Shown: positions 500 through 58,201, numbered from the stretch's first letter. The stretch: 64,000 bases of DNA from Ruminococcus sp. (GCA_029062165.1 JAIDQQ010000041.1:4034-68033), one strand, 5' to 3'. The notes: a model not told the origin generated them from the letters alone. Numbers and translations are program-made.

Positions 500-3400
500 C
501 TATTCCTTATGTAAAATAGTCTTTATTCTGTATACGGTTGTTTTGTTTTCTGCATTGACGTACAATGCATCTTTTTCGCCTATTTCTGTATTCATGATTT
601 TATTTCTTTCGGCAAGAGGAACACTAATGAAACCGTCAATGATATTTCCGGCACGTGCTGAACCAAACAACATAAAGTTTGCCTTGGCACTTTTTGCCCT
701 GTAAAGTTTCGGGGCTTTTACGGAAGAAATCTCATCATTATCGACATCTGAAGCCATCCATGCGAATTTATATGGCAGATAGTTAAATAAACTGTCGTCA
801 AAATCATTGAGCATTTCCTTACTGGAATCTTCATAAATCATCATAAGAAGCGGTTTGTCGTTCAGTACGGACATATCGCCGTTATTTTCAAGGACAAGTT
901 TCTTTCTTTCCTCGAGTTCTTTTTTCCAGTCACTGCAAATGCTTTTCATATTCTGCGTACTTATTTCATATCTTGTTATGCAGTTATATTTGTCTGCCAG
1001 TCCGGCGTATTTCCTTACAGTAGCCTTGTCGAAAATGACAATCTGTACTGGTGCGGATTCAATACCGGCATTGATACATGAAATCATATATTTTATAAAA
1101 TTGGTTTTATCCGGTTGAGAAGTTCCGGCAATTATCATGTTAAGTCCCGAAAGATTCATTTTTATCGGCATGAGACTGTTATAATCGAAGCCGAGAATAA
1201 AGCTGTATGGCGTGAAATATGAAAAATATTTACTTCTCACGTCGTTTTCGATAAGCGGATTAGGTATTTCAGGAATTATCATAGCTTTTCTGTCCGGATA
1301 CTGCATATTGATTTTATTGACAAAAGCTTCAATATGCTTACCTCTGTCAGTTTCCTTTTCTCCCTGAAAACTCTTGTAAATCTGACAGTCAAGGGTTTTC
1401 TTGTCGACTTCCACAAGACAGCGTCCGGCAATATCGTCAACAGATAGTCTGAACGTATTGAAAAGATTTGTATATTCATCGGTGTTGGTATGATGCAGAC
1501 CTATACGGCACGTAAAATGTGAAATTAATTTATATTCAATGCCCTTGACACTACTATTTGTAACAACAACACTTATTCCGGCAGAGAGTCCCTCTTGCAG
1601 TACCGATTTCAGAACAATCTTATCATTAAGATAAAGTTCCTTGAAAGATGTGAAGTTATCTATCATAAGGATTATCAGCGGTAAATCGGAATAACCCGAT
1701 TCCTTATATGCCGTATATGAACTTACTCCGGCTTTATTGAATTTCTTTTTTCTTTCGGAAATTTCAGTGACAAGAAGTTTAAATAAATTATTCATTTTTT
1801 CTTCTTCGTTCTGTACAACAACGCCACCGACGTGTGCAAGATTATTGAACTGTTTCAGTATCATTGAAGAATAGTCTATAATATAGAAATTAACTTCTTC
1901 GGGAGTATATTTTTCCGCAAGAGTACGTATGATAAGCTGAAGTATATTTGTTTTGCCTGTCTGTAGTTCGCCGGTTATGAACATATGTTTCAGTGACATA
2001 TCAACGATATAATTTTCCTGTCTCTGATTTGCGGGGTCATCGAATATACCTAAATCGGCGTATATGCCTGTACCTGCTCTCTTCGGATTTTCCGTATAGG
2101 CAATGACTTTTTCAAGAGGTGGCTGGCATATATTCGGAAGTTTTTTCAGATTGCTTTTTTCAAAACATTCTGTAATCCTTGCCATAATGGCTTCTTTCTG
2201 TGAAATCATTTTCTTATCGTTTCCGGAATCACTGTTTTTTCTCGAAAATGCCGGTAGTCTTCTTCCGGCAAAGTCAACCAGTGACATTGTAAATTCTTTC
2301 TGCTGTTCAAGTAAATCGGCGTCGGCAGATGCTCCGCTATATGCTGACTGAAACAACTCGAATACTTCGTTATTGCCTACCATTAAATAAGCACGTCCGG
2401 CTTCCTTTATTTCCGAAGCAAGAGGAGTTTTTATAACTTCCTGACTGTCTGACGGTGTCTGGACTTTAAGACAGATACGGAATTTTGAATTACTGTCAAT
2501 CTGTGAATCAACCTGTCCTTGAGGTTTCTGTGTGGCAAGTATAAGATGTACTCCGAATGAACGTCCCACACGAGCTATACTGTTCAGTTCTGACATGAAA
2601 TCACCGTACTGTGCTTTGAGTTCCGCAAATTCGTCGACTATTATAATCAGGTGTGGCAGAACTGTTTCAACATTATGCGATTTCAGTTCATTGATATATT
2701 TGTTTATATGGTCAACTTTGGCATCTTCAAAAAGTTTCTTACGACGTTCTATTTCCGCTTTGATTGATATAAGTGAACGGTTTATGCCTTTACCGTCAAT
2801 ATCAGTTATGACGCCTAATGTATGCGGTAATGTCTTAAACTGATTGCCCATTCCGCCACCTTTGAAATCTATGATAAGAAATGCTACTTCTTCGGGGCTG
2901 AAAAGTGTCGCAACTGAAAGTATATAGGTCATAAGGACTTCACTTTTTCCTGAACCGGTTGTACCGGCAATAAGTCCATGCGGACCGTGTGCCTTGTCGC
3001 TGTCGTGAATGTCAAGATATACTGTTTCATTACCGGAACATACGCCGATAGGAACAGCCATAGACTTCGTGACATCTGATTTATTCCAGCGTGCTTTTAT
3101 GTCAAGTTCTTCAGCGGATTTTATACCTAAAAGCTGATATAATGTTATGTTCTTCGTGAGGGTGGATTCAAGGCTTACTTCCTCGCAGTATATGGAAGCA
3201 AGTTTATATGATATACTATATAAGTCACTGTCTTCAATGCGGGTATATTTAAAGTTTACTATTTCTGTATTTTCGTTTTTGATAATACGTCCTTTTGTAT
3301 CGTCGTCGACAAGGACAAGTTGCGAACAGCCTAATGGTATATAATCGCTGTGGTTTTCAAAGAATATGAAAGTTGCACCATAAAGTGAGGCTTTTTCTAT

Positions 3401-15877: not shown

Positions 15878-18800
15878 TTATTCATCGGAACCATCAGAGG
15901 GTTCTTTCGGATTTGATGTTTCTTTGTCAGGATTTTCTTCTGCCCCTTTTTCTGTATCAGTAGTTCCATTGTCTGAACCGCCAACTATTTCGCCAGGATT
16001 CTGATTGTCGTCACTAAGTGTTATGCGTGGCATTTCATTCTTTTTAGGAACTGGTTCAAGGAGTGAGTCACTTACTATACGCTGACCTTCACTTGTGAGA
16101 GCGTTGTTTACTCTGTAGAGTTCTACACGGACTTTTTCAGGCCATTCCATTTTTTCAGCTTCTTCAGGAGTTATCCAGTAAATGAATGTACCTTTAGAAA
16201 TTTCTGTTATAAGTGAACCTTCAGGAACAGGAGGTGCCATGAGAACCTGATGTACCTGAACCTTTGTTTTATTGGCTTCTTCGAGAGCAGCTCTGACTTC
16301 TTCTTCGGTGAGACCTGTAAAATCTTGTTCAGGAGGCTGACCGACAACTCTTCCTTTCTCATTGAAGAGGATAACTGCATTGTAAGACGGATTACCCTTG
16401 TAGTTGCCTATGAATACATAAGAATCTTTCGGGATAAAGATGTTATTTTCCTTGTCGAGTAAGTAATCGTTAGCAAGCTGACCGAATAAAGTAGCATCTT
16501 CTTTTTCGGAATCTGTTGATTTGGTGAAGTAAACGTTGTCACCTGTTACGCCAAGTACGTCAAATTCAGAGATGTAAATTTTTTCGTCGTTCTTATCTAA
16601 AATCTGTATTTTGATTTCAGAAGTTTCAAAAGTAGCTATATAATTGCTTGAAGGTTTTGAGAAGTAAATAATGCCGTCTTCGTTAAATGTAACAAATGTT
16701 TTCTCTTCAGCTTTTTCGCTTTCAGCGTTTTCTTCTAATATATTCTTCCAGTTACCTTCTTCGTCTTTTACGAATACAGCACATTTCTTAATAGCTGAAT
16801 CTTTGAATTGTTCAGGTGTTGAAAGCTTGATACCGCATATTGTCTGTGGCTCATTGAAGTTTACATAGATATTGGGTTCACCCTTAACTGTTGCTTCAAA
16901 ATATGTGCCTACGTTATCGTCGAATGCGTTTATAACGGGGTCAACTTTTACAGGATGACAGTCCATGGTTTCGTCGTTAGGTTCATTTTTAGTGATTTTG
17001 GAATTGAAGTATTCACTTGGTTCGGTGCTATTATCAGAAGTTTCTTCGTAATAGTCAGAAGTGATAGTCCAGTTTGTCTTTGCAAGACTTCCGTCGTGTT
17101 CAATTTTGGTTCTTATTGTTTCAACTGTATTTGAGTAGTTAAGATACTGGTCAACTGCAACAACCTTGTAAAATACAGTACGGTTATTGAAAGCTGTAAC
17201 GGTATCAACATAAGTTTTCTTGCCCTGTAAGAATGTTACCGGAGTTTCTTTAATGTCACCGCCGGATATAGTGCAACGTCTGATTTCATATCCGAGGATA
17301 TCAGAATCACTGTAGTTACTGTTAGTATTGATTGTGAGTGTAACTATGTTAGACTTACTGCCTTTTCCTGTCTCGATACCTACGCTGTTTATGATAGTAT
17401 CTGTTGTTTTGTCTTCTTTTAAGAAGCTCTTTGCTGAACCGTTCTTAGCGATAATACGTGAGTTTTCGTTAGCATACTGAATAGCTCTTGTTTCATCCGG
17501 AAACTGTGAAGCATATAATTCTGTTGTGAAGTTCGGAGTTTTACCCCAGCGTCTGAAGAATTCGAGAACGTTTTTGCCGGAAGCTGCACAAGCAAGTCTC
17601 ATAAGATTCTGGTCAGTACCGTCATTGAGTTCAAGATTAAGTTTTAAATCTGTTTCCTTTTTAACATTATTAGCTTTTGAAGGATTTCTTGAATACTGGT
17701 CCATTTTTGCATAGAAGAGATTATCTATAATTTCTTTGTGTGTGCCGTAAGTCTTGAAGTTGTAGTCTTTATCGAAAGCAAGGTGTAACTGCCAGTACAT
17801 ACCAAGCTGTGTACCCTGGTCAGCCTGACCGCTTGTGTTTGAAGTAACTTTCTTGTAAATGTTCGTGTAGTTCAGTCTTGAACCTTCGTTCTTATCCTGA
17901 GCCTGTGCAAGCATTGAGAAGTAGTTATTTGTGATTTCAGGTACAGCATAGCTTGAGTCATTGAGGCAGTGACCGATTTCGTGTGCGATACCCCATCCGA
18001 AGTAGCTACCGCTCTGGTATTTGCCGTTTTCGTCAGCCCGAACGCCTTCGCACCTTACCATATCCGGTACTGAACCATACTGGATACCGATATGATTTCC
18101 GGCAGCGTACATGAACGCACCCTGGAACATTCTCTGATAGCGGATATTGAGATGCTGATTAGGTATACGGTCAACAACGGCTGTAGCGTCGTCACTCATG
18201 CCCTTGTGCTGATAGAAGAACTTAACCATTTTTTCCATAGCGTCCATTGAATTTATGAGTTTTTCAGCACGGTCTGTAGTTGAGCCATTGCCTAAGCCTG
18301 CGAGTATCTGAGTTGCAGGAAGTGAATACATCATTGTATCGTCAAGAATATCCGTTGCACCTAAGATACAGAGTTGTTCATTGTAATCCATATCAAGATA
18401 AGAATTCTTTTGGTTGTTCGCATCCTTTGCACCCTTATGAATTTCATTGTGCAGTTCAGGCATCTTTGCAACGTAAGCATCAAGTGCTTCAATATATTCA
18501 ACAGCTTTTGCTACTTTTTTGTCATGGTCATTCATTTGATAGATGTCAAGGAACGGAACTTCTGTACCACCATTAACACGTACAGAATACTGTTCTTTTG
18601 ATGTAGTAGTGTTTTGATATTGTACATAGAGTGCACCGCCACCCTCTGCACTTGCAAGCTGAGGAGTAGGAATTGTGAATGTATTAGCACCTATGTTAAG
18701 ATTCTGCGCATTGAGAAGTGTCAGACCACCGGATTCGGAGTTATACTGTGTTGCAATGAGTTTAATATTTGTGCCTTCGCCGGTTTTCATAATGTTGCCG

Positions 18801-21800
18801 TATGAGTTTTTACCGCCGACATAAACTGTAATTTTTGTATTTGAACCAGCAGTAACGCCGAGAGGTTGCCAGGCATTAAGACCATTATATCTACGGCTTG
18901 TGCCTGCTTCAATCGGGTCATTAGTTGTAATGCCATTGTGAACAACAACCGGAGGTGGCATTTTACCTTCCTTAAGTATTTTTTCTGCTGTTTTGAGTTC
19001 GTTTTCGAGCATAGTTCTTTCAGGGTTAAGTTCACCGTTTCTTGGGTCTGGCTCGTTGATTTTTGTACGGAGTTCATCAATATCTTTCTGCGTAATACCG
19101 TCTTTAAGAACTGTATGGAGGTCATCTTCATAGAGAGCCATTATCTCATCATATACTGGGTTGTATTCATAGAAAAGAATTTCTGAATAAGTAACTTCAT
19201 TATTGCCTGCTTCACGCCAGTTGTCGAACCAGATTTTAACTTTTTTAGCCTTAAAGTGCGGGAATGACCTGAGGTAGTATATTTTATTGTTTTTGTCTTT
19301 TAATTTACCGTCGCTGAAGTATCCTGATACTGCACGCTCCCACTGTTCTGTTTCTTCGTTCCATACGTCAGCATATACGTAACATACGTCTGCCTTAACC
19401 GGTATTGTCAGAGCAAAAGAACTAATGTCATATTCTTTATCAAATTCAAATATAAGACCTGCGTCAGACCAACCTTTATGTGTGTAATATGTTTCCTGAT
19501 CGCCGTCAACAACACTCCATGCTGTCATATCATTTGTAGTACCTGCTTCGATTGCTTTGGCGTTATTAGCATCTTTTGTGTTGTTGCCTATTATATTGCC
19601 GCCTAATCTTGTAACAGAAACGATATGTGAACTGCCAGGATTGTTGTTTTCGTCTACGTTTATAGCGTTATACTGACGCATTATAATAGGGTCAAGAGTA
19701 GTTGTTTTTGCCTGAGTGTGAACGGATTCTCCACTATCGCCTTTACGGTTAGTGCTTTTTACGTAAATTTCGTATTCATGACGGTCTTCAAGGTCTGTAA
19801 GGGTACAACTTGTTTGGGCACCATATGGAGAAATATATTCCGTGTATTCAGTTTCTTCATTTGTGAGGTCTTTGTAGTAAATTTTATAACCTGTAGTGCT
19901 GTTTGTGTTATCGCCGTTCCATGTGAGTTTAATTTGTCTGTAGTCAGCGACAGCACGTACATTATCGGGCTTATCAGGTAAGCTGTTGGAAACTGTAGTA
20001 ACTTTCTGTACTTCAGACCATGCACTTCTGTAATCTTCGCCTACTACACGGACGTGTACATAATAAGTTGTATTTATCTTGATAAGTTTGAAGTTACCGT
20101 GTTCAGACTGAAGTGAATAAGTATTTGTATCATAAACGATTGAATTCTGTACACCTGGAATAGTTGAAGCGAAACTGCCGTCAGATTTTGTATTCGGACT
20201 TGTGGAAACTTCAATTTCAAATCTTTTCTCAACGTTTAAAGGAATATCCCATGTAACAGTAATTTTTGCGTCCTTGTCAGCAACGCCCATATCCTGAGCG
20301 ATTTTAACATTAGTCGGGTAGTCAATAGCCGGTGGTGCCATATGTTTTTCCATACCGTTAAGCATCTGAACTTTACCTATCTGAGCAAGGCTTGTGCTCT
20401 TAACGGCGGTAAGTGTAAGAGTAATCATTTTAACAGCAACCTGTTTACCGAGGTTTACTGAAAGATTACCACTTTCGTCAACATTAGCTGACATACTTAC
20501 ATTGGCAAAATTGCCATTCTTTTCATCTTCGCCCATAGGATATGTACCCTCCGGAGCAATGGTCTGGCTTATAATTGTATTATCTGCTAATACAATTTCA
20601 ACTGAACCTGAATCAATGTTTGCAGGAATTGTAAATTTCTCAAGTGGTGTATTGCCGAGAGGAATCGGAATATCTAAAGGGTCATCTATTGAAGGTGCAA
20701 CCGGTACTTTTTCTTCGTTACCATTTTCGTCAGTAACAGTTTTATATCTGCCTATTTGTATCATATTCGGTGGTGGTGCTTCTTCACCGTCACCGGAATT
20801 TTCATTTTCCACGGAACTATTATCTGAACTGAACAGGGCTGAAATATCACCTGTAATTTCTACATCGTCGGGGAGTAACTCTTCTATAGAATTCATAGCA
20901 GTCTCGCTCAAATTCTCTGCCACCACAGTTTCCATTACTGTTGCATCAGTACTCCAGTTTCTTGTTTTAAGATAGTTCTTTGCAAAAAATGTGAAGTCAG
21001 TGAGGTCTATTTTACCGTCATGGTTAAGGTCACTGTCGTTATCGCTTTTTTCTTTTCCATTTCTTGCAGAAGCGTCAAGGTCAGAGAGCATGATATTTAA
21101 ATCACGTTCGTCAAGACTGCCGTCGTCGTTTACATCGCCTACTGCCAAAGTACCAGGGTGGTTTTCTGGTACGGCTACAGTTTTGCCGTTTACCTCTTTA
21201 GTAGTAGTTTCATAAGTATATATGTTCTCATTGAAGCCGAGATTAACTATCGCATTACAGGTCGAATCCTTGAGTTCTTCTGTTTCCTGGCTATATTTCT
21301 TTAATCCGGGAGCATTTACTTCAATACGATACTTACCATTTTGAAGATTACTTGGTGTTCTTAAGTATACTGAAGTGTTAGATTTCTTGCTTATCGGAAC
21401 AGTATCGTTTTTCACCGTCTCATATTTCTCTGTTTCTTTACCGTCTTCTGTAGATTCTATAACCTTACGTTGCAGTTCAATAGGTTTCTGCTCCGGGTCA
21501 TCAACATTGTAAATTTTTACTGTACAGTTAAAATCGTCTTTAAATTCAAGGTAATTTGTAATCTGAAGATTAATTGTAGTGTAGCCAGCCTTAGCCATTA
21601 TATCGGCTTTTGCTAATGTAGCTTCTCTTAGTCTTTTTATTTCTTCTTCCCTTTTTTGTTTAGCTATTTCTTCTTCAGTTAATTCAGGTTTTTTAGTTTC
21701 TTCTTCACCATCTGGCGTGCCACCATTGTTTCCATTTCCATTATTGCCTTCACCCTCTGCACTAGCTGAAATGACATTGTATGAAAGAATTTCCGATGCG

Positions 21801-21901
21801 CCTGACACATTCGATAAGCTTCCCATCATAGCTAATGTTGATACTAAAGCAAGTGCTTTCTTCAGGTAACGTTTTCTCATTGAACCTTTCATAATATTCA
21901 T
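15878..21901 (-). CDS. Giant secreted M60-like (enhancin-type) zinc metallopeptidase with dockerin, FN3 and discoidin/CBM32-like modules
   Basis: HEIGHCLNDSSYAVPEITNNYF fits the M60 HExxH...E/NN signature. A dockerin duplicated Ca-loop is present (DVNDDGSLDERD and DLNHDGKIDLTD). There is an FN3-like segment (PDKPDNVRAV...YKIYYKD). The signal peptide begins at MNIMKGSMRKRYLKKALALV. The track's start at 22123 was rejected; the start is ATG 21901 or 21892. Confidence 0.85.
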   Translation of the reverse strand: MNIMKGSMRKRYLKKALALVSTLAMMGSLSNVSGASEILSYNVISASAEGEGNNGNGNNGGTPDGEEETKKPELTEEEIAKQKREEEIKRLREATLAKADIMAKAGYTTINLQITNYLEFKDDFNCTVKIYNVDDPEQKPIELQRKVIESTEDGKETEKYETVKNDTVPISKKSNTSVYLRTPSNLQNGKYRIEVNAPGLKKYSQETEELKDSTCNAIVNLGFNENIYTYETTTKEVNGKTVAVPENHPGTLAVGDVNDDGSLDERDLNIMLSDLDASARNGKEKSDNDSDLNHDGKIDLTDFTFFAKNYLKTRNWSTDATVMETVVAENLSETAMNSIEELLPDDVEITGDISALFSSDNSSVENENSGDGEEAPPPNMIQIGRYKTVTDENGNEEKVPVAPSIDDPLDIPIPLGNTPLEKFTIPANIDSGSVEIVLADNTIISQTIAPEGTYPMGEDEKNGNFANVSMSANVDESGNLSVNLGKQVAVKMITLTLTAVKSTSLAQIGKVQMLNGMEKHMAPPAIDYPTNVKIAQDMGVADKDAKITVTWDIPLNVEKRFEIEVSTSPNTKSDGSFASTIPGVQNSIVYDTNTYSLQSEHGNFKLIKINTTYYVHVRVVGEDYRSAWSEVQKVTTVSNSLPDKPDNVRAVADYRQIKLTWNGDNTNSTTGYKIYYKDLTNEETEYTEYISPYGAQTSCTLTDLEDRHEYEIYVKSTNRKGDSGESVHTQAKTTTLDPIIMRQYNAINVDENNNPGSSHIVSVTRLGGNIIGNNTKDANNAKAIEAGTTNDMTAWSVVDGDQETYYTHKGWSDAGLIFEFDKEYDISSFALTIPVKADVCYVYADVWNEETEQWERAVSGYFSDGKLKDKNNKIYYLRSFPHFKAKKVKIWFDNWREAGNNEVTYSEILFYEYNPVYDEIMALYEDDLHTVLKDGITQKDIDELRTKINEPDPRNGELNPERTMLENELKTAEKILKEGKMPPPVVVHNGITTNDPIEAGTSRRYNGLNAWQPLGVTAGSNTKITVYVGGKNSYGNIMKTGEGTNIKLIATQYNSESGGLTLLNAQNLNIGANTFTIPTPQLASAEGGGALYVQYQNTTTSKEQYSVRVNGGTEVPFLDIYQMNDHDKKVAKAVEYIEALDAYVAKMPELHNEIHKGAKDANNQKNSYLDMDYNEQLCILGATDILDDTMMYSLPATQILAGLGNGSTTDRAEKLINSMDAMEKMVKFFYQHKGMSDDATAVVDRIPNQHLNIRYQRMFQGAFMYAAGNHIGIQYGSVPDMVRCEGVRADENGKYQSGSYFGWGIAHEIGHCLNDSSYAVPEITNNYFSMLAQAQDKNEGSRLNYTNIYKKVTSNTSGQADQGTQLGMYWQLHLAFDKDYNFKTYGTHKEIIDNLFYAKMDQYSRNPSKANNVKKETDLKLNLELNDGTDQNLMRLACAASGKNVLEFFRRWGKTPNFTTELYASQFPDETRAIQYANENSRIIAKNGSAKSFLKEDKTTDTIINSVGIETGKGSKSNIVTLTINTNSNYSDSDILGYEIRRCTISGGDIKETPVTFLQGKKTYVDTVTAFNNRTVFYKVVAVDQYLNYSNTVETIRTKIEHDGSLAKTNWTITSDYYEETSDNSTEPSEYFNSKITKNEPNDETMDCHPVKVDPVINAFDDNVGTYFEATVKGEPNIYVNFNEPQTICGIKLSTPEQFKDSAIKKCAVFVKDEEGNWKNILEENAESEKAEEKTFVTFNEDGIIYFSKPSSNYIATFETSEIKIQILDKNDEKIYISEFDVLGVTGDNVYFTKSTDSEKEDATLFGQLANDYLLDKENNIFIPKDSYVFIGNYKGNPSYNAVILFNEKGRVVGQPPEQDFTGLTEEEVRAALEEANKTKVQVHQVLMAPPVPEGSLITEISKGTFIYWITPEEAEKMEWPEKVRVELYRVNNALTSEGQRIVSDSLLEPVPKKNEMPRITLSDDNQNPGEIVGGSDNGTTDTEKGAEENPDKETSNPKEPSDGSDE

Positions 21902-22190
21902 CCTTTCTGAATAAGGCAACTTATTATTAAATACTGAAAATGAAATCAATAAGCTTGCCAGATAAAATTTCTTTACCGGAGATACCATATTGTTTTTCGC
22001 TCCGTCTGTGTTGATTATATTATACGCTATCTGAAAAAAAAAATCAATACTTTTTTTCAATTTCAGCTGATTTGTACAGTAAATTGTCTTGTTTTTATAT
22101 AAATCCGTTAAAAAACAGGGCAAAAAAAAGCGGGAATATCATATGAAATCACTGCCGTAGAGACAGGCGAATATCTTTCAACAAAGTATA

Positions 22191-35519: not shown

Positions 35520-37964
35520 ATGAATCTGAAAAAACGTCTTATAGCCGGTGCAATGTGTACCGCTACCGCCTTATGTCAGCTTACAGCGAATCTGCCTGTA
35601 GCTTATTCCGCTGAAGAACTCGCTGAATCAATCGCAAACGATTCCGGACTTGATTACGATTTTGCACGTGCTTTACAGTATTCCATATATTTCTACGATG
35701 CCAATATGTGTGGTACGGAAGTTGAAGAAAACAATCGCTATTCATGGCGTGGGAACTGTCATACATATGATGCTGAAATACCACTCATACCTATGCCTGA
35801 CAGTAAAAGTTCCGGTACAAATCTTACACAGGAATTTATCGACAAATACAGGGATATTCTTGACCCTGACGGTGACGGTCTCATAGATGTCGCCGGTGGT
35901 TTCCATGACGCCGGTGACCATGTTAAATTCGGTATGCCCGAAAACTATGCCGCTTCTACAGTCGGCTGGGGTTATTATGAATTTCGTGATTCGTATGTGA
36001 AAACCGGTCAGCAGGAACACATTGAAACAATTCTCCGCTATTTCAATGACTATCTCATGAAATGTACTTTCCGTGACAAAGACGGTACAGTAATAGCACA
36101 CTGCTATCAGGTAGGCGACGGCGATATTGACCATGCTTACTGGAACTCACCGGAAGTAGACAGTATGGTACGTCCGGCATTTTTCCTTACTGCCGACAAA
36201 CCACAAACTGACTACGTAGCATCAGCGGCGGCGTCACTGGCGATAAACTACCTCAATTTCAAGGATACTGACCCTGAATACGCTGAAAAATCCCTCGATT
36301 ACGCAAAGGCTCTGTTTAAATTCGCTATGGATAATCCGAAAGAACTTAGCGACAATGAAGACGGTCCGAAAGGTTATTACCGGTCAAGCAAGTGGGAAGA
36401 CGATTACTGTTGGGCGGCTGCATGGCTTTACAAGATAACCGGCGAACACAAATATCTTGAAGAAATATATCCTAATTACGACTACTACGCCGCACCTTGT
36501 TATGTACACTGCTGGAATGATGTATGGGGTGGTGTTCAATGCGTACTGGGTGAAATATGTATGGAAAAACCTCTTAAAGACGGCGAACACGTCTATCCGG
36601 ATTTCATAGACGAGTTTAAAGAAGTAGCCGGTAAAAGTCCGTACGAGGAAATGAACTGCTGGGAATCCGTCGCAAAAGCTATTGAAACTTATATGTCCGG
36701 CGGTATCGGAACAGTTACACCGGCTGGCTACTGGTGGTTAGATACGTGGGGTTCTGCACGATATAATACAGCCGGACAGTTAATGGCACTCGTACACGAC
36801 AAGTACGTAAACGGCGGAAAAGCCGGTAAATACGGCGAATGGGCAAAAAGTCAGATGGAATATATTATGGGAAATAATCCGCTGAAACGTTCGTATATAG
36901 TCGGATATAACGAAAACTCGGTAAAATATCCGCATCACAGGGCGTGTTCCGGACTTACCAAATGCGAAGACCTCGACGAACACAGATACGTTCTGTACGG
37001 AGCTTTGGCAGGTGGTCCTGATAATGAAGACGGTCATAACGATACTACAGCCGACTGGATTTACAACGAAGTAACCATTGACTACAATGCGGCATTCGTC
37101 GGAGCGTGTGCCGGTCTGTATGAATTTTTCGGTACGGAAGATATGAAACCTACTAAAGATTTCCCACCTGCTCCGAAGTACAGCGGTGGTGCAAGCGGTG
37201 GTAATAATTACTGGGTCAATGCCTGCGGTATAGATGACCTCAAGGCTGACGGTTGCGGTGTTACTAAAATATCGCTTATGGTTATGACCGATTCTACCAA
37301 AATAAACAACGATATTTCAGTAAGATATTATTTCAACAGTTCGGAAATATCCGACGTGAACACCGTCACGGCAAGCAAACTCTATGACCAGTCGGAAGTA
37401 GAAGCCGGTGCGACAAGTTCCATAAGCGGTGTACAGAAATACGATAAATTACCCGATACTTATTACGTAGAAATAAAGTGGAAAGACTATAACATAGCAA
37501 ATTCCGGTAAAAAGTATCAGTTTACGCTAGGAATGTACTATGGCGACAAGTGGAATCCTGAAAACGACTGGAGTTATCAGGAACTTGAAATTTTCAAGGA
37601 CGATACTGCTTTTTTCGGTACGGGAAATGAAGTCCGTAATGATAATATATGTGTTTATTCCGACGGCATACTTGTCGGCGGTATCGAACCCGACGGAAGC
37701 AAACCGGAAACTTCTACAGCGGAAACTGATAAAATTCTTTACGGAGACTCAAATTGTGATAATGAAGTAAGTCTTTCTGATGCGGTATTTATAATGCAGT
37801 CGCTTGCAAATCCGGATGAGTTTAAACTTTCGGAGCAGGGTATGAAAAATGCTGATGTAGTCGGTAATGACGGCGTTACAAGCAATGACGCTCTTGCAAT
37901 ACAGATGGTAGGTATAAATCTTCTGAAACAAACCGATTTCCCACTTAATGAACTAATTGTATAA
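35520..37964 (+). CDS. Cellulosomal GH9 endoglucanase with a CBM3-like module and C-terminal type I dockerin
   Basis: A signal peptide. GH9 signatures GGFHDAGDHVKFGMP, YPHHRA and NEVTIDYNAAF. The dockerin carries a duplicated Ca-loop (GDSNCDNEVSLSD and VVGNDGVTSND). Confidence 0.9.
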   Translation: MNLKKRLIAGAMCTATALCQLTANLPVAYSAEELAESIANDSGLDYDFARALQYSIYFYDANMCGTEVEENNRYSWRGNCHTYDAEIPLIPMPDSKSSGTNLTQEFIDKYRDILDPDGDGLIDVAGGFHDAGDHVKFGMPENYAASTVGWGYYEFRDSYVKTGQQEHIETILRYFNDYLMKCTFRDKDGTVIAHCYQVGDGDIDHAYWNSPEVDSMVRPAFFLTADKPQTDYVASAAASLAINYLNFKDTDPEYAEKSLDYAKALFKFAMDNPKELSDNEDGPKGYYRSSKWEDDYCWAAAWLYKITGEHKYLEEIYPNYDYYAAPCYVHCWNDVWGGVQCVLGEICMEKPLKDGEHVYPDFIDEFKEVAGKSPYEEMNCWESVAKAIETYMSGGIGTVTPAGYWWLDTWGSARYNTAGQLMALVHDKYVNGGKAGKYGEWAKSQMEYIMGNNPLKRSYIVGYNENSVKYPHHRACSGLTKCEDLDEHRYVLYGALAGGPDNEDGHNDTTADWIYNEVTIDYNAAFVGACAGLYEFFGTEDMKPTKDFPPAPKYSGGASGGNNYWVNACGIDDLKADGCGVTKISLMVMTDSTKINNDISVRYYFNSSEISDVNTVTASKLYDQSEVEAGATSSISGVQKYDKLPDTYYVEIKWKDYNIANSGKKYQFTLGMYYGDKWNPENDWSYQELEIFKDDTAFFGTGNEVRNDNICVYSDGILVGGIEPDGSKPETSTAETDKILYGDSNCDNEVSLSDAVFIMQSLANPDEFKLSEQGMKNADVVGNDGVTSNDALAIQMVGINLLKQTDFPLNELIV

Positions 37965-50907: not shown

Positions 50908-51519
50908 ATGGATATATTCAGCAGATTAAGTGATTTACTGAAATCCAATCTTAATGACCTTATCGACAGGGCAGAAGACCCTGAAAAAATGGTCAGGCAG
51001 ATTATCGCCGATATGCAGAACGAACTTAATAAATCCGTACAGAATTACGGAAAAATAAAGTCGGAATGCATTCTTAATGAAAAAAAGTATCAGGACGCTT
51101 TGAAAAACTCTCATCAGTGGGAGGAAAAAGCTAAAAACGCTCTCTTACAAGGTGACAGGTATCTTGCAGGACAGGCTGTAATGAAAAAAGTACAGTCCGA
51201 CGAAGAAGCGGTATCCTATAAGGAATTGCTTGATAACTTGAAAGTTAAGGAAGAAACTATGAAAGCTCAGGTTGAAACCCTCCGGCTGAAAATTGAAGAA
51301 GCTAAAAGCCGTCAGGAAATACTTATAGTCCGTAAAAAAATGGCTGATACCCAGAAACGACTTTCTGAAATATCCGGAAATCTTGACAGCGTAAAGGAAA
51401 ATACCGCTTCAGTTACGGAAGAAGAAAACGCTCTGAAAAAAGAATTGTCTTCTAAGGTCAGTTCAGAACTCGCAAGGCTTATGTCAGAAATGAATATTGA
51501 CGATTCCGGTGAGGAATAA
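50908..51519 (+). CDS. pspA: PspA/IM30 family membrane-stress protein
   Basis: The N-terminus FSRLSDLLKSNLNDLIDRAEDPEKMVRQIIADMQ is the canonical PspA signature. The body is a long coiled coil. Confidence 0.85.
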   Translation: MDIFSRLSDLLKSNLNDLIDRAEDPEKMVRQIIADMQNELNKSVQNYGKIKSECILNEKKYQDALKNSHQWEEKAKNALLQGDRYLAGQAVMKKVQSDEEAVSYKELLDNLKVKEETMKAQVETLRLKIEEAKSRQEILIVRKKMADTQKRLSEISGNLDSVKENTASVTEEENALKKELSSKVSSELARLMSEMNIDDSGEE

Positions 51520-51786: not shown

Positions 51787-53718
51787 ATGCTTGTTTCGTT
51801 AAATAATATAAATAAATTCTATAATGGAAATCAGTTACTTGATAATATATCTCTCACGATTGACGAGACCGACAAAATAGGATTAGTCGGGAATAACGGT
51901 TGCGGAAAGTCAACGCTTCTGAAAATAATAACCGGTACTGTAGAGCCTGACCGCTTCACCGAAAAGGATGGTATCATTTCATTTGCCGGAAAGACTACAA
52001 TAGGCTATCTCGAACAAATGGGCGGACTTGATTCTGAAAAAACTGTCATGTCGGAAATGCAGGGTGTTTTTTACGATATGCATAAAGCTATTGAACGTCT
52101 TCGTGAAATAGAAATAGAAATTGAAATGGGTAATAATTCGTCAGTTGACGAGTATCAGCGATTATCTTCGTGGGTTGAGGCTAATGACGGTTACAACACC
52201 GACGTTAAAATAAGAACAATCCTGAATGGTATGGGATTTTCTGAAAATGAACTTAACCGGACTGTTTCGGGATTCAGCGGTGGCGAAAAAACACGTCTGT
52301 GTATAGCGAAACTTCTTCTTGAAGAACCTAATCTTCTGATACTTGACGAACCTACAAACCACCTCGATTTCAAGACTATCATGTGGCTTGAAGACTATCT
52401 CCGCACATACAGGGGTGCGGTACTGATAGTATCGCATGACAGATATTTTCTTGATAAACTATGTACTTCTATATGTGAAATCGAAAGAGGTACGCTTACA
52501 CGCTATAAGGGAAATTATTCAGCGTTTGTGCGTCAGCGTGAGGAAAATAATGTGCGTCGTGAAAAAGAGTACGAAATGCAACAGAAACAAATCGCTAAAC
52601 TTGAAGACTATGTAGCTAAAAATCTCGTGCGTGCCTCTACTACGAAAATGGCACAAAGTCGTCGCAGACAGTTAGAAAAAATAGAACGCATTGAAAAACC
52701 TTTCCATGAGACGAAAACAGCCAAAATCCATTTCACATACACCATAGAACCGCCTATAGATGTACTTAAAGTCAAGGGCGTTGATATTTCAGTAGGTGAG
52801 GGAAATTCACGGAAAACTCTTGTAGACGAGGTAAATTTTGAAGTCCGTCGGGGTGAAAAAATAGGTATCATTGGCGATAACGGTATTGGAAAATCAACGC
52901 TTCTGAAAATTATTCAGGAAAAACTTTCGCATAAGGGAATTGTCCGCTGGAACAGTAATATAAAAATATCCTACTTTGAACAGGAAAGCACCAACTTAAA
53001 CCGTGAACTGTCCGTAATGGAAGAGATACACAGCCGATATCCGTCTATGTCAGATTTGGAAGTGCGTAGTCTGTTGGCACAGGTCAGACTGACCGGCGAA
53101 AACGTCTTCAAACAGACAGGAGTTATCAGCGGTGGCGAACGTGCTAAATTATGTTTCGCAATCATGATGCAGGAACACGGAAATGTCCTGATACTCGACG
53201 AACCTACAAACCATCTTGACTTGTTGTCAAAAGAAGCCATTGAAGAAGCACTTGAAGAATACACCGGTACTGTAATATTTGTATCGCATGACAGGTATCT
53301 TTTAAGTAAAATTGCAGACCGTCTGATTGAACTTACTGCCGGAAAATATCGTCTGCATGACTACGGATTTGAAAAATATCTTGATGTACTCCGTGAGGAA
53401 CAGGCGGAACAGAAAAGAATTTCCGACGCTGAAAAATTCGCAAAAAATGCTGAAATCGCTAAGGAAAAATCCGTAAAGGCTTACCGTAGCAAGCAACAAC
53501 GTAGTGCAGACGTAGCAAGGAAAAATGAAATGAAACGTCTTGAAAAGAAAATAGACGAATTTCAGGCGGAAATTGATTCCCTTACGGAAGAAATCTCACA
53601 TGAAGAAGTCTATAGCGATTACGAACTTATGAACAAAAAATGTACGGAAATTGAAGAACTCAAACAGCGTATAGAAGAAAATTTTGAAAAAATGATTGAA
53701 CTTGAAGAACAATTATAA
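51787..53718 (+). CDS. ABC-F family ATPase (two NBDs, linker, C-terminal coiled coil)
   Basis: Two Walker A motifs (GNNGCGKST and GDNGIGKST). Two signature motifs (FSGGEKTRL and ISGGERAKL). No TM domain. Confidence 0.9.
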   Translation: MLVSLNNINKFYNGNQLLDNISLTIDETDKIGLVGNNGCGKSTLLKIITGTVEPDRFTEKDGIISFAGKTTIGYLEQMGGLDSEKTVMSEMQGVFYDMHKAIERLREIEIEIEMGNNSSVDEYQRLSSWVEANDGYNTDVKIRTILNGMGFSENELNRTVSGFSGGEKTRLCIAKLLLEEPNLLILDEPTNHLDFKTIMWLEDYLRTYRGAVLIVSHDRYFLDKLCTSICEIERGTLTRYKGNYSAFVRQREENNVRREKEYEMQQKQIAKLEDYVAKNLVRASTTKMAQSRRRQLEKIERIEKPFHETKTAKIHFTYTIEPPIDVLKVKGVDISVGEGNSRKTLVDEVNFEVRRGEKIGIIGDNGIGKSTLLKIIQEKLSHKGIVRWNSNIKISYFEQESTNLNRELSVMEEIHSRYPSMSDLEVRSLLAQVRLTGENVFKQTGVISGGERAKLCFAIMMQEHGNVLILDEPTNHLDLLSKEAIEEALEEYTGTVIFVSHDRYLLSKIADRLIELTAGKYRLHDYGFEKYLDVLREEQAEQKRISDAEKFAKNAEIAKEKSVKAYRSKQQRSADVARKNEMKRLEKKIDEFQAEIDSLTEEISHEEVYSDYELMNKKCTEIEELKQRIEENFEKMIELEEQL

Positions 53719-53776: not shown

Positions 53777-53805
53777 TTGAAAACTGCCTTTTAATATGTT
53801 ATAAT
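53777..53805 (+). promoter_or_regulatory. Promoter of the SCIFF locus
   Basis: TTGAAA, a 17-nt spacer, then TATAAT. Confidence 0.55.
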
Positions 53806-53860
53806 TAAATCCAACACGCACGGTTATATGTCGTGTAAAAAATTATGGAGGTTTATGATT

Positions 53861-53998
53861 ATGAAGCACATTCAGACAATCAACAAGGCTAATCTTAAAG
53901 AGTCTGCTAAAAAAGGTGGCTGTGGCAAATGTCAGGCATCATGCCAGTCAGCTTGCAAGACTTCCTGTACAGTCGCTAACCAGAAGTGCGAAAGATAA
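53861..53998 (+). CDS. scfA: SCIFF (six cysteines in forty-five residues) ranthipeptide precursor
   Basis: Absent from the ORF track because it is shorter than 60 aa. It encodes MKHIQTINKANLKESAKKGGCGKCQASCQSACKTSCTVANQKCER. That is 45 aa with exactly 6 Cys and the conserved GGCG.CQ.SCQSACKTSCTV core. GGAGG lies 9 nt upstream. Confidence 0.85.
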   Translation: MKHIQTINKANLKESAKKGGCGKCQASCQSACKTSCTVANQKCER

Positions 53999-54014
53999 GA
54001 CTTGCATTTCACCG

Positions 54015-54051
54015 GAGGCAGTGTTTGTAAAAAAATACTGCCTCTGTTTTT
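54015..54051 (+). terminator. Hairpin plus T-run after scfA (probable attenuating terminator)
   Basis: Stem GAGGCAGT/ACTGCCTC with a 14-nt loop, followed by TGTTTTT. Confidence 0.45.
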
Positions 54052-54068
54052 AGTTATGAGGTGATATT

Positions 54069-55661
54069 ATGGTTTTTAACTGCAAAATGTGCGGAGCTAA
54101 TTTAAATGTGCGAGCCGGTATGCGTATATGTAAGTGCGAATACTGCGATTCCGTACAGACTATTCCGGATTTAACTAGTGAAAAGAAGTTACAGCTTTTC
54201 AATAAGGCGAATGCTTTACGTTTTGCGTGTGATTTTGATAGGGCAGGCGACGTTTATAGGGATATTGTGACAGATTTTCCGGAAGAAGCCGAAGCGTACT
54301 GGGGATTGTGTCTCTGTAAGTATGGCATAGAGTACGTCGTTGACCCTGAAACACAGAACAGAGTGCCGACTTGTCACCGTACATCTTTTGAAAAGATTCA
54401 GGATATACCGGAGTTTCGGAAAGTCCTTGAATATTCCGACGTGAATTTAAGAAATATATACATACAGCTTGCGGAAGTAATCGACGGTATACAGCAGAAT
54501 ATACTTGAAATTGCCATGAAAGAAAAGCCGTTCGATGTGTTTATATGTTACAAGGAAACTGCTGAATCTGGTTTTCGTACTGCTGATGCGTTACTTGCGG
54601 AAAAAATTTATTCCGTACTCACAAAGCAGAATATAAAAGTATTTTTCGCACCGGTGACGCTTAAGGACAAGTTAGGCACGGAATTTGAACCCTATATATA
54701 TTCAGCGATAAATTCCGCCCAGATTATGTTATGCGTCGGGACGTCTCCGGAACATTTTGATTCCGTATGGGTACGGAACGAATGGAGCAGGTTTATCGAA
54801 CTCATGAAGAAAGACAAGTCTAAAATACTCATACCGTGTTATGCGGAAATGTCAGTAGGACAGTTGCCGATGGAGTTCAGAGGGTTTCAGGCACAAGACC
54901 TCACGGAAACAGATTCGCTTGAAAATATCGTGAAAAACGTCGGCGACATCATGAAAGCAAGCGAGGGGGCAAAATCGCAGTTAAATATACTTATGGAACA
55001 GTTTGAGGGACAGTTAAGAAATGAACGGTCTAAACTCCGTATGCTTGAAAACGTACATCATCAACAAATGATTTACGAAAAGCAGAACGCTAAAAAGATG
55101 TTCAAAAAGGAGTATACACCACTTTCAGCACTTGCTTTTCTTGAAATTATGATTGTTGGCATAGTTTCGTTTATACTTACCATGCTTTATGCTACTTTTG
55201 ATTTTGACATAATGCTTGTACCCATAGGAGTCTTGATTTTTTCGGTACTACCGGCTTGTATAGCCTTGCCACGCATAAACAGACGCAACAAAAAAGCCCG
55301 TGAAAATCTTGCCCGACGACTTGCATACGACGAAAACGCACCCGATTTTGATTATGGCAGTCAGGACAATGAAGTAGTACAGCTTCGGGAAATTGCTATG
55401 AAAAATTACGAAAAACAACATTTTTCAATAGGAAAAATATTCGGTCTGTATTGGCTTTGGAATTGGTTTTCATTTCTTCCTAAAAGTTTCATAGAGGGAA
55501 TATTAGATAATAGTTATGATAAAATTGCCCCTGTTTTTACAGCAATTTTCAATGTGATAATACCTGTTATCGCTCTTGCTTTTATACTCCGGCGTAATGT
55601 AAGACTGAAAAAAGAACTCAACGAAAAGTTAGACGAGATAAACAAGAAAAATAAAATCTGA
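54069..55661 (+). CDS. Zinc-ribbon / helical / TIR-domain protein with a coiled coil and C-terminal TM helices
   Basis: The N-terminus carries CKMC..CKCEYC. The AEAYWGLCLCKYGIEYVVDP...PTCHR module follows. The TIR-like core spans FDVFICYKE...VFFAPV...SAQIMLCVGTS.....SVWVRNEWSRF and has a conserved Glu. Four hydrophobic helices lie in the last 190 aa. GAGGTGA RBS. Confidence 0.7.
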   Translation: MVFNCKMCGANLNVRAGMRICKCEYCDSVQTIPDLTSEKKLQLFNKANALRFACDFDRAGDVYRDIVTDFPEEAEAYWGLCLCKYGIEYVVDPETQNRVPTCHRTSFEKIQDIPEFRKVLEYSDVNLRNIYIQLAEVIDGIQQNILEIAMKEKPFDVFICYKETAESGFRTADALLAEKIYSVLTKQNIKVFFAPVTLKDKLGTEFEPYIYSAINSAQIMLCVGTSPEHFDSVWVRNEWSRFIELMKKDKSKILIPCYAEMSVGQLPMEFRGFQAQDLTETDSLENIVKNVGDIMKASEGAKSQLNILMEQFEGQLRNERSKLRMLENVHHQQMIYEKQNAKKMFKKEYTPLSALAFLEIMIVGIVSFILTMLYATFDFDIMLVPIGVLIFSVLPACIALPRINRRNKKARENLARRLAYDENAPDFDYGSQDNEVVQLREIAMKNYEKQHFSIGKIFGLYWLWNWFSFLPKSFIEGILDNSYDKIAPVFTAIFNVIIPVIALAFILRRNVRLKKELNEKLDEINKKNKI

Positions 55662-55676
55662 AAGGAAATTTTTAAA

Positions 55677-57047
55677 ATGATACATAAATATAAACTTAAC
55701 GGATTCAATATAGTTCTCGACGTCAACAGCGGTGGTGTGCATATCGTCGACGAACTGACATACGATTTACTCGACAACATAAAGCCACCGTTTGAGCCGG
55801 AATGTCGTCCGGATATTATAGAAAAACTTTCCAAGGTTTATCCGGCAGAAGAGATTAAAACCTGTTACGCTGAAATAGTCGAGTTATACAACGAAAAAAT
55901 ACTTTTTTCCGAGGACGATTACGAAAAATACGCACAGTATTCAGTAGCGTCACCGGTAAAGGCAATGTGTCTTAATATCGCACATGACTGTAATCTTCGC
56001 TGTAAGTACTGTTTCGCATCTACCGGCGACTTCGGCAAAGGCAGGAAATTAATGTCTTTCGAGACCGGCAAACACGCTATTGATTTTCTGCTTGAAAAAT
56101 CCGGAGACCGTCAGAATCTCGAATTAGACTTCTTCGGCGGTGAGCCTCTTATGAATTTCGACGTCGTAAAGCAGATTGTAAAATACGCAAGAAGTCGGGA
56201 AGCCGAATTTAATAAGAAATTCCGCTTTACGATAACTACAAACGGCATACTTCTTGACGACGATAAAATTGATTTTATAAATAAAGAGATGTCAAATGTC
56301 GTATTGTCGATTGACGGCAGAAAAGAAGTCAATGATTTTATGCGTCCGAGGGTGGACGGTTCAGGCAGTTACGATAAAATTTTACCGATGTTCAGAAAAC
56401 TTGTCGAAACCCGAGGTGATAAGGAGTACTATGTAAGAGGTACATTTACAAATCATAATCTCGATTTCGCCGACGACGTTTTTGCACTTTACGACGCCGG
56501 TTTTGACCAGATTTCCATTGAACCTGTTGTAGGAGATTCCGACGAGTACGCACTTACGGAAAAGGATTTACCGGAAGTTTTCAGCGAATACGAAAGACTT
56601 GCTAAAAGAATTATCGAAAATGAAAAATCCGGTAAGAAATTTAACTTTTTCCACTTCATGATAGACTTAGACCAAGGACCTTGTGCGATAAAAAGACTTC
56701 GTGGATGTGGTTGCGGAAATGATTACGTCGCAATAACTCCGGACGGCGATATTTTCCCATGTCACCAGTTTGTAGGGATAGACGAGTATAAAATGGGTAA
56801 TATCGATGAGGGTACATTCAATCAGGAAATGAAATCGGATTTTGCTAAGGCACACGTCTACACAAAACCGGAATGTACTAAATGCTGGGCAAAATTCTAT
56901 TGTAGCGGAGGTTGTAACGCCAATAATTATCAGTATATGGGCGATATCAGGACGGCTCATAAACTTTCGTGTCAGCTTGAAAAGAAACGTCTTGAATGTG
57001 CGATAATGCTGAAAGCTATACGAATTTTCGGGGAGCAGGAACAGTAA
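55677..57047 (+). CDS. scfB: Radical SAM/SPASM thioether-forming SCIFF maturase
   Basis: A CNLRCKYC (CxxxCxxC) cluster. The SPASM Cys motifs are CGCGNDYVAITPDGDIFPC and CTKCWAKFYCSGGC. At 456 aa it matches the size of known SCIFF maturases. Confidence 0.85.
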   Translation: MIHKYKLNGFNIVLDVNSGGVHIVDELTYDLLDNIKPPFEPECRPDIIEKLSKVYPAEEIKTCYAEIVELYNEKILFSEDDYEKYAQYSVASPVKAMCLNIAHDCNLRCKYCFASTGDFGKGRKLMSFETGKHAIDFLLEKSGDRQNLELDFFGGEPLMNFDVVKQIVKYARSREAEFNKKFRFTITTNGILLDDDKIDFINKEMSNVVLSIDGRKEVNDFMRPRVDGSGSYDKILPMFRKLVETRGDKEYYVRGTFTNHNLDFADDVFALYDAGFDQISIEPVVGDSDEYALTEKDLPEVFSEYERLAKRIIENEKSGKKFNFFHFMIDLDQGPCAIKRLRGCGCGNDYVAITPDGDIFPCHQFVGIDEYKMGNIDEGTFNQEMKSDFAKAHVYTKPECTKCWAKFYCSGGCNANNYQYMGDIRTAHKLSCQLEKKRLECAIMLKAIRIFGEQEQ

Positions 57048-57443: not shown

Positions 57444-57824
57444 ATGAAAAACAGGGTCAGACTAAGAGTTATGGACGTCGACGGCGAAAAATATCTGTGG
57501 TCATATAACTACGATGACATGGATTTTTACAATTATCCTTATTCTTATTATCTTTTTGTACCGGAAAACAATAAAAAATTAAAAGTAAGAGTTTATTTTA
57601 CTCGATATAGTCCGAATATGAATATAGACGCTTATTCCGACGAGGGAACACCTTGTTTTTACGGAGAAGAAAAAATTATCCTTAATCTGTGCCGACCGTT
57701 TTTCGCCCGACAGATTCTTGATTACGTTTTTAATAATCTGTGCAGTAAATCCGACGTCGGAGAGATTAACATTAAAGACGGTGATAATATTCTGTATGAA
57801 CTGGGCTACAGAGATTTTGACTGA
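57444..57824 (+). CDS. Hypothetical protein (126 aa), paralogue of the next gene
   Basis: GGAGGAG RBS. It shares the pattern V.G.KY.W ... L.V.V.F ... I.DG..IL..LGY with the 57842 gene. Confidence 0.4.
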   Translation: MKNRVRLRVMDVDGEKYLWSYNYDDMDFYNYPYSYYLFVPENNKKLKVRVYFTRYSPNMNIDAYSDEGTPCFYGEEKIILNLCRPFFARQILDYVFNNLCSKSDVGEINIKDGDNILYELGYRDFD

Positions 57825-57841: not shown

Positions 57842-58201
57842 ATGAAAAGAAAAACACGTACAATAACAGTAAACGGTAAAAAATACGTCTGGTGGTGGGG
57901 AGTATATTACGATTCAACTGAATTGTATCTTTCACCGGAGGACGATAAAACTTCTGTCATAAGAGTGGATTTTACAGATAAAAATATCAGTGGTCAGTTC
58001 AATATGAGCGTTATTATCCGTAAAGACGGTACGGAAAAAACTGTAAAAATAATAGAACCGGCAATGTCCGGACTGCTTTTACCGTACTTACAGGAGCAGG
58101 AAATGTTTATTACACGTAAAAATATATTCATAGACGGTTGTGACCTGCTTAGAAAAATGGGTTATGAAGTTATCGGGATAAAGAAAGGTCTGTGTTGGTG
58201 A
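57842..58201 (+). CDS. Hypothetical protein (119 aa), paralogue of the previous gene
   Basis: It shares the N-terminal TVNGKKYVWWW block and the C-terminal IDGCDLLRKMGY block with its neighbour. Confidence 0.4.
   Translation: MKRKTRTITVNGKKYVWWWGVYYDSTELYLSPEDDKTSVIRVDFTDKNISGQFNMSVIIRKDGTEKTVKIIEPAMSGLLLPYLQEQEMFITRKNIFIDGCDLLRKMGYEVIGIKKGLCW

Follow-up and report, generated by a model that had tools for sequence, protein, structure and literature searches.

The precursor gene and the maturase gene of the SCIFF ranthipeptide system, scfA and scfB, are split in a 64,000-nt stretch of Ruminococcus sp. DNA (GCA_029062165.1, JAIDQQ010000041.1:4034-68033; the whole stretch is called the window, and all coordinates are positions in it) by an inserted gene whose product combines a zinc ribbon (ZnR), a helical module, a TIR domain and a transmembrane (TM) tail, and is here called TIR-TM. 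The split is genuine and represents a form of the SCIFF arrangement that had not been described before; it is restricted to a clade of rumen and gut Ruminococcus species rather than being a one-off. Literature searches on SCIFF with TIR, on zinc ribbons with TIR in Firmicutes, and on gut TIR NADases (enzymes that cleave nicotinamide adenine dinucleotide, NAD+) returned no description of the arrangement or of the protein family to which the insert belongs. On balance, TIR-TM is probably an accessory TIR effector that works independently of SCIFF, and sequence comparisons indicate that its gene most likely entered the scfA–scfB spacer long ago, in the radiation of the Ruminococcus flavefaciens group, and was inherited with the operon.

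The three genes lie head to tail on one strand, according to the listing of open reading frames (ORFs) and direct reading, together with putative promoter, terminator and ribosome-binding sites (RBS):

53777..53805, + strand: promoter-like site 5' of scfA, sigma-70-like, with TTGAAA, a 17-nt spacer and TATAAT with an extended -10 TG
53861..53998, + strand: scfA, SCIFF ranthipeptide precursor of 45 residues with 6 Cys (PF13165 and TIGR03973)
54013..54051, + strand: terminator-like hairpin (stem 54013-54046, 14 pairs, 6-nt loop) followed by TTTTT
54058..54064, + strand: RBS GAGGTGA of the TIR-TM gene, read directly and conserved at orthologous loci
54069..55661, + strand: TIR-TM gene, 530 residues, with ZnR, helical, TIR, coiled-coil and four-TM parts
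55662..55668, + strand: scfB RBS AAGGAAA, abutting the TIR-TM stop codon, read directly; a GAAAGG-type site also lies 5' of scfB in TIR-less spacers
55677..57047, + strand: scfB, radical SAM/SPASM SCIFF maturase (TIGR03974), with Radical_SAM, Fer4_12 and SPASM domains

The promoter-like site, a putative promoter by consensus match, agrees with 11 of 12 consensus positions and is the best of the region. Only about 20 nt separate the T-run of the hairpin from the TIR-TM start, and 15 nt separate the TIR-TM stop from the scfB start; therefore, there is no room for a promoter or terminator belonging to TIR-TM itself, which supports the placement of this gene in the same transcription unit as scfA and scfB, as a first-pass annotation of this DNA had proposed. 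The precursor and maturase genes stand 1,678 nt apart, with the TIR-TM gene between them (the usual distance is 64-165 nt), and scfA, which shares the strand and the apparent operon with the maturase gene, is thus not its direct upstream neighbour here. The elements on which the first-pass annotation had relied were all recovered, namely the 45-residue peptide with six Cys (above the cut-offs of PF13165 and TIGR03973), the hairpin behind it (the 14-pair stem with its TTTTT), and the 530-residue ORF with its GAGGTGA RBS and with scfB 15 nt past the stop codon (by direct reading).

Apart from their broken adjacency, scfA and scfB are, by their profile scores, ordinary members of their families. 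The scfA product, MKHIQTINKANLKESAKKGGCGKCQASCQSACKTSCTVANQKCER, carries Cys at positions 21, 24, 28, 32, 36 and 43, and scores 85.7 bits against PF13165 (cut-off 27) and 82 bits against TIGR03973 (cut-off 50). ScfB reaches 722.8 bits against TIGR03974 (cut-off 425), its score against the not_ScfB exception model NF040492 being 586.7, below the cut-off of 855; moreover, it contains the radical SAM motif CNLRCKYC and matches PF04055 (60.9 bits), PF13186 (31.3 bits) and TIGR04085 (71.3 bits). SCIFF is among the most widespread systems for peptides synthesized on ribosomes and modified post-translationally (RiPPs) in Clostridia, and there is as yet no settled view of its function. A quorum-sensing role has been proposed for it and the open questions have been listed (PMC8326336).

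The distribution of the insert was followed in a species-representative scan in which 80 loci of at least 570 scfB relatives were analysed, all from the R. flavefaciens group and its relatives, with ScfB 80-98% identical, and classified by tblastn. The TIR-TM gene is present at 10 of the 80 loci, in every case between scfA and scfB, so that the tabulation suggested in the first-pass annotation finds it clade-restricted and not widespread. The positive genomes are all metagenome assemblies. The usual 64-165-nt spacer is found at 68 loci, including those of all cultured R. flavefaciens strains, in agreement with the expectation that the SCIFF precursor and maturase genes are normally adjacent. 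One further locus (L027) carries an unrelated gene in the spacer, and the last one is cut off by a contig end. A protein search recovered full-length TIR-TM orthologs down to 43% identity, and the order scfA, TIR-TM, scfB is kept in all seven intact orthologs sampled (P0010, P0019, P0033, P0034, P0037, P0041 and P0042; 43-75% identity) despite differing flanking genes. Indeed, all located TM-tailed TIR copies, intact or decayed, sit between scfA and scfB, and a search with the C-terminal 230 residues alone returned only fragments of split copies and no separate TM-domain family. The identity of SCIFF is 93-100% over the whole set of loci, whether the insert is there or not, and neither SCIFF nor ScfB shows a sequence shift between lineages with TIR-TM (TIR+) and lineages without it (TIR-).

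The unrelated gene, L027:3144-3977 in Ruminococcus sp. Tb.RUG.452 (JAEEVL010000003.1), encodes 277 residues and lies past the terminator, 23 nt 5' of scfB. Its product has an HHID motif and a sub-threshold PcrA/UvrD-tudor-like C-terminus, and its nearest relatives on the ScfB tree (L028 and L032) have clean spacers. The occurrence of an unrelated gene at the same spot suggests that the spacer may be a small insertion hotspot.

The 80-nt spacer between scfA and the TIR-TM gene, which folds at -27.3 kcal/mol (z = -5.0; 0 of 200 shuffles fold as well), contains the only terminator-like site of the region, and a terminator scan alone returns no more sites than are found in shuffled sequences. This hairpin is generic to scfA and not special to the TIR+ locus: a GC-rich hairpin stands 3' of scfA in all 83 distinct spacers, TIR+ and TIR-, and its stems vary compensatorily (GAGGCAGT/ACTGCCTC, GAGGCGGT/ACCGCCTC, GGGACA/TGTCCC, GAGCCTGT/ACGGCTC). 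At least five U follow within the next 9 nt in 60 of the 83 spacers, an undercount because extended stems absorbed some of the U-runs. The hairpin can be read as a putative leaky attenuator that separates the precursor from the genes 3' of it. Where the insert is absent, the scfB RBS lies about 20-30 nt past the U-run and, therefore, scfB is presumably expressed by terminator read-through everywhere; the TIR-TM gene occupies exactly the position between the scfA terminator and the scfB RBS. An extension of the hairpin that would sequester the RBS by pairing CACC with GGTG was considered and dropped, as it is absent from orthologs such as L002.

The history of the insert runs largely parallel to that of the maturase. 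Pairwise identities of the TIR-TM N-terminal part and of ScfB are correlated among 13 TIR+ loci (r = 0.80), and both proteins form matching deep groups, namely the main clade, L004 and L090 together with L055, L071 and L073, and L091 together with L006. On a bootstrapped ScfB tree built from codon positions 1+2, which replaced a neighbour-joining tree on raw nucleotide identity that was too saturated, the main TIR+ clade and the L055/L071/L073 clade are each supported at 100%, L091 pairs with a TIR-less species at 94% and L006 branches deep, and the TIR+ lineages are scattered among TIR-less ones. The overall pattern fits vertical descent from one old insertion, followed by several losses. The surroundings of the insert show no flanking direct or inverted repeats and no GC anomaly, that is, neither insertion scars nor foreign composition. 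Frameshifted or split copies of the TIR-TM gene are found in at least five lineages (L012; L014; L071, also L007 and L009; L093/L094; L095/L096), and scfA and scfB are intact around all of them. The intact copies are under purifying selection, with ratios of nonsynonymous to synonymous substitution (dN/dS) against close relatives of 0.03-0.05 in the ZnR/helical part, 0.05-0.15 in the TIR domain and 0.28-0.51 in the TM region, the values for scfB being 0.02-0.03. Between the two closest genomes (window 54069-55661 and L010:1957-3546), dS falls from 0.70 over codons 1-150 to 0.29 in the TIR domain and 0.13 in the TM region, with 0.46 in scfB, and this unevenness along the TIR-TM gene hints at recombination mosaics within it.

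The layout of the TIR-TM protein was drawn from an alignment of 42 full-length orthologs (A1) and from an AlphaFold2 model with a predicted local distance difference test (pLDDT) of 76.7, the TIR domain mostly at 70-89 and the predicted template-modelling score (pTM) of the whole model only 0.36:

54069..54158, + strand: residues 1-30, CxxC...CxxC zinc ribbon (C5, C8, C23, C26), with invariant Cys and predicted beta strands
54159..54518, + strand: residues 31-150, predicted helical domain, uncharacterised and family-specific, from alignments and the model
54519..54923, + strand: residues 151-285, TIR domain, from TIR_2 and Foldseek, with the E238 codon at 54780-54782
54924..55103, + strand: residues 286-345, predicted long single helix or coiled-coil stalk, from the model (helix 283-339, pLDDT 78-88)
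55104..55661, + strand: residues 346-530 and the stop codon, two predicted TM hairpins with a basic middle loop and a basic tail, from hydropathy, K/R content and helices

In the model, the helical domain consists of TPR-like helices at about 38-85, a beta-hairpin at 87-102 that holds the invariant motifs EAYW..C.YG.EY and PTCHR, and a long helix at 114-151. A TPR_14 match to this domain is sub-threshold, and querying PDB sequences with a profile of the orthologs brought up nothing beyond sub-threshold matches to TPR, syntaxin and TIR, with no solved relative of the N-terminal module. Residues C81, C83, C102 and H103 (54309-54380) could form a second metal site in this module; C83 and H103 are invariant, C102 is present in 255 of 256 family members and C81 is often conserved.

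By profile, fold and motif, the TIR domain is a genuine member of TIR_2 and has a Glu of the catalytic type. PF13676 (TIR_2) matches residues 157-283 with 47.7 bits (cut-off 28; E 2.6e-12), the best Foldseek matches in the PDB are TIR domains (SARM1, MyD88, TRIF, TcpB, TIRAP and SPARTA), and E238, the Glu of an SxWxxxE-type motif within DSVWVRNEW, is aligned with the Glu of flax L6 DSKWCLMEL, albeit in a weak alignment (E 1.2). We take this L6 glutamate to be the catalytic one of plant TIRs. By analogy, TIR-TM probably cleaves NAD+.

The C-terminal part is predicted to contain TM segments at about 349-372, 383-401, 452-470 and 490-510, three of them strongly hydrophobic and one aromatic-rich. 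Counts of K/R are 5 before the first segment (325-352), 0 in loop 1, 11 in the middle loop, 2 in loop 3 and 7 in the tail, a distribution that fits a four-TM topology with both termini inside and would therefore place the TIR head in the cytoplasm, following the positive-inside rule. In the ortholog alignment, hypervariability is seen in the TM helices and in the short loops that face outward, and the cytoplasmic middle loop, NKKARENLxRRLAYDENAP, is conserved. The C-terminal membrane domain of DUF2207 (PF20990) gives 21.8 bits, below its cut-off of 33. The domain sketch of the first-pass annotation therefore stands in every part: the CxxC..CxxC ribbon with its helical module (invariant Cys and model), the TIR-like domain with a conserved Glu (TIR_2 above cut-off, Foldseek, and E238 in 256 of 256 sequences), and the coiled coil with four C-terminal TM helices (helix 283-339, hydropathy and loop charges). 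The profile checks that it had called for, TIGR03973, TIGR03974 and TIR_2, all exceed their cut-offs; the TIR profile is significant and the clade-restricted insert has no expression signals of its own.

The N-terminal part of TIR-TM belongs to a much wider family. Searching with the N-terminal 300 residues yields 6,694 representatives of 50%-identity clusters at E <= 1e-3, a number that falls to 3,708 at E <= 1e-30; the match starts at residues 1-5 in nearly all matches listed, the proteins measure 293-1,383 residues, and their C-termini carry TPR, LRR, RCC1, DUF6273 or no domain. Across 43 orthologs and 213 paralogs, the zinc-ribbon residues C5, C8, C23 and C26 are invariant, as are P100, T101 and H103 of PTCHR (C102 and R104 are each found in 255/256) and, in the TIR domain, CYK160-162, W234, N237, E238, W239 and R241 (256/256). 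Two independent paralog neighbourhoods were inspected, and both are of a mobile or defence type without SCIFF context: L092:478-13725 has four family members in tandem, with PycTM and Band_7 proteins and a NikA/MobC gene, and in L097:741-8155 two copies are accompanied by Band_7 proteins, an nSTAND6 ATPase, relaxase/NikA genes and a serine recombinase. The recurring pairing of TIR and Band_7 at these two loci looks like an undescribed conflict-system neighbourhood. No match to the N-terminal module was found by tblastn in 50,697 phage records, and in PADLOC the protein has only a CorA-like match (E 0.0055) over the coiled-coil/TM part, the N-terminal 300 residues having none. The TIR-TM gene directs attention to a very large family of gut and rumen Clostridia that is still uncharacterised, resembles a family of single-chain immune receptors and lacks a PADLOC entry.

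If TIR-TM is indeed an accessory effector expressed from the SCIFF operon, a plausible course of events can be sketched from the layout of the locus and, for its later steps, by analogy. Transcription would begin at the promoter-like site of scfA and most transcripts would end at the conserved terminator behind it, keeping the precursor in excess; read-through transcripts would carry TIR-TM and scfB, so that the TIR protein and the maturase would both be produced at one and the same low level. A site behind a leaky terminator in a conserved operon would be a way for a potentially toxic accessory gene to obtain low, steady expression. The two TM hairpins would insert with both termini inside, leaving the ZnR/helical/TIR head in the cytoplasm on its coiled-coil stalk. 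TIR NADases need oligomerisation. A trigger at the membrane, e.g., a phage or an envelope perturbation, may cluster the TIR domains, whereupon Glu238 would cleave NAD+, either depleting it or yielding a signal of the ADP-ribose (ADPR) type, and growth arrest would follow, as in abortive infection.

The first-pass annotation had offered two readings of the locus, a functional link between SCIFF and TIR, or a TIR gene that resides in an already expressed operon. The second is favoured here because SCIFF is equally conserved with and without the insert, because the insert has been repeatedly lost or frameshifted while scfA and scfB stayed intact, because a different gene sits in the same spacer in L027, because the possibly outward-facing parts are the least conserved of TIR-TM, and because the N-terminal module is common to thousands of paralogs, with two inspected neighbourhoods devoid of SCIFF. 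The evidence leans against the first reading, in which the three genes would form one module, with SCIFF (mature or unmodified) or ScfB regulating TIR-TM as an activator, an antitoxin-like inhibitor or a cargo, and the SCIFF pathway would be wired to a TIR-based NAD+ response. Such a module would be consistent with the apparently obligate co-transcription of a gene that lies 15 nt from scfB and has no signals of its own, with the exclusive occurrence of the TM-tailed subfamily in the SCIFF position in every lineage sampled, with purifying selection over a long divergence, and with the fact that neither a receptor nor an exporter is known for SCIFF and that its function is not settled (PMC8326336). 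However, the exclusive position requires no coupling if the gene was inserted once, long ago, and then descended vertically, no shift in SCIFF or ScfB accompanies the presence of TIR-TM, lineages that lost or frameshifted it kept scfA and scfB, the conserved parts are those shared with the paralogs found outside SCIFF loci, and the part specific to the subfamily, the TM region, is poorly conserved. We therefore consider a regulated three-gene module unlikely.

A more specific version, in which SCIFF, having no exporter, protease or receptor of its own, gates a membrane-anchored TIR NADase inside the cell or at the membrane as a three-component module, appears less likely still. If true, it would provide the first concrete molecular target of SCIFF and a RiPP-controlled TIR switch for suicide or stress. 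In any case, the TIR+ clade offers a natural with/without comparison for asking whether SCIFF touches NAD+ or stress biology. The idea that the TM domain serves as an extracellular SCIFF receptor is unlikely and was dropped because SCIFF hardly varies, whereas the loops that face outward are hypervariable, and very short as well.

Several points weigh against TIR-TM being an independent accessory effector. Read-through of the scfA terminator and the lack of an internal promoter are deduced from the layout, and NADase activity, trigger and defence role are drawn by analogy. No known defence-system profile of PADLOC or NCBIfam matches the TIR-TM protein or its N-terminal module. The backbone of the ScfB tree is weakly supported, which leaves it uncertain how many gains and losses there were. 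Some of the frameshifts could be assembly errors of metagenome-assembled genomes, but since several of them are seen again in samples assembled independently, this cannot hold for all. Finally, a real tie to the operon would also be compatible with a gene that, under purifying selection, has stayed at one site down to 77% ScfB identity.

TIR-TM might instead be a membrane TIR protein without a defence role, acting in scaffolding, envelope-stress or NAD-derived signalling, to which the operon merely gives expression. Some TIR domains are protein-interaction scaffolds, and this reading would agree with the absence of matches to known defence-system profiles, with the lack of a phage-borne homolog among the 50,697 phage records and with a chromosomal locus beside housekeeping genes (ABC-F, PspA, rpoC) without signs of mobile elements. 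On the other hand, the invariant Glu at the catalytic position and the WVxNEW motif argue for an enzyme, a patchy distribution that includes pseudogenes is what one typically sees for dispensable conflict genes and not for core physiology, and both inspected paralog neighbourhoods are of the mobile/defence type. A non-defence role thus seems as improbable as a regulated module. Least convincing, and very doubtful, is a decaying passenger without current function in this genome that is kept only since its deletion would risk scfB expression: the five lineages with frameshifted copies still between scfA and scfB and the relaxed TM region (dN/dS 0.28-0.51) would suit it, but the window copy is full-length with every family-invariant residue, its N-terminal 285 residues evolve at dN/dS 0.03-0.15 against close relatives, and the 68 species with clean spacers make loss evidently possible.

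The genes around the operon provide further context. A PspA/IM30 gene (50908-51519) and an ABC-F ATPase gene (51787-53718) lie just 5' of scfA, and ABC-F is the upstream neighbour of scfA in most TIR+ loci with gene tables, L004 and L090 being the exceptions. On the 3' side, past scfB and a cytidine-deaminase gene, two adjacent small ORFs (57444-57824, 126 residues, and 57842-58201, 119 residues) are weakly paralogous to one another (24% identity, E 5e-6) and have no Pfam match. The left part of the window contains, on the - strand, an FtsK/SpoIIIE-family ATPase of 1,514 residues (500-5044) and a 2,081-residue protein with M60-like peptidase, fn3 and F5/8 type C domains (15878-22123). A GH9 cellulase is encoded at 35520-37964 and, together with the genes of the left part, fits a fibre-degrading Ruminococcus. 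Rfam at gathering thresholds and tRNA scans gave no matches over the whole window.

Compared with known systems, the locus is closest to canonical scfA-scfB loci such as those of R. flavefaciens FD-1 (L063) and ATCC 19208 (L075), with a precursor 93-100% and a maturase 80-98% identical, the same terminator-like hairpin after scfA and the same GAAAGG-type scfB RBS; it differs from them in the 1.6-kb gene between the hairpin and that RBS. The inserted protein shares its N-terminal ~295 residues (~45-57% identity, including the invariant residues) with the ZnR-helical-TIR family of Oscillospiraceae, Ruminococcaceae and other Clostridia, whose members appear in databases as 'TIR domain-containing protein', whereas the coiled-coil and four-TM tail and the site in the SCIFF operon are found only in the TIR-TM subfamily. 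The best structural match is the TIR domain of human SARM1 (PDB 7cm7, 8d0g; E 2e-4, TM-score 0.59 normalised to the 139-residue target), with which TIR-TM presumably shares the WV(H/R)(K/N)E pattern around the catalytic Glu; at ~19% identity, in an unrelated domain context and in a different kingdom, SARM1 is a relative at the level of the fold only. TIR-TM does not classify as Thoeris, its best match being NF058526 (ThcB4) with 15.2 bits against a cut-off of 220, and the operon has no SIR2, SLOG or Macro gene. The TIR_2-type domain with its conserved Glu is also that of the TIR effectors of Pycsar, CBASS and SPARTA and of B. subtilis SpbK, a single-protein TIR NADase defence protein (PMC12847820). 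In contrast to all of these, TIR-TM has no profile match and no cyclase, Argonaute, SIR2 or SLOG partner nearby, and it possesses a unique ZnR/helical N-terminal module and a four-TM C-terminus. TIR_2 domains of gut bacteria make ADPR or variants of cyclic ADPR (PMC9092222). Like SpbK, TIR-TM is the product of a single gene without an obvious partner, and its mode of working would be most similar to that of single-chain TIR NADases in defence.

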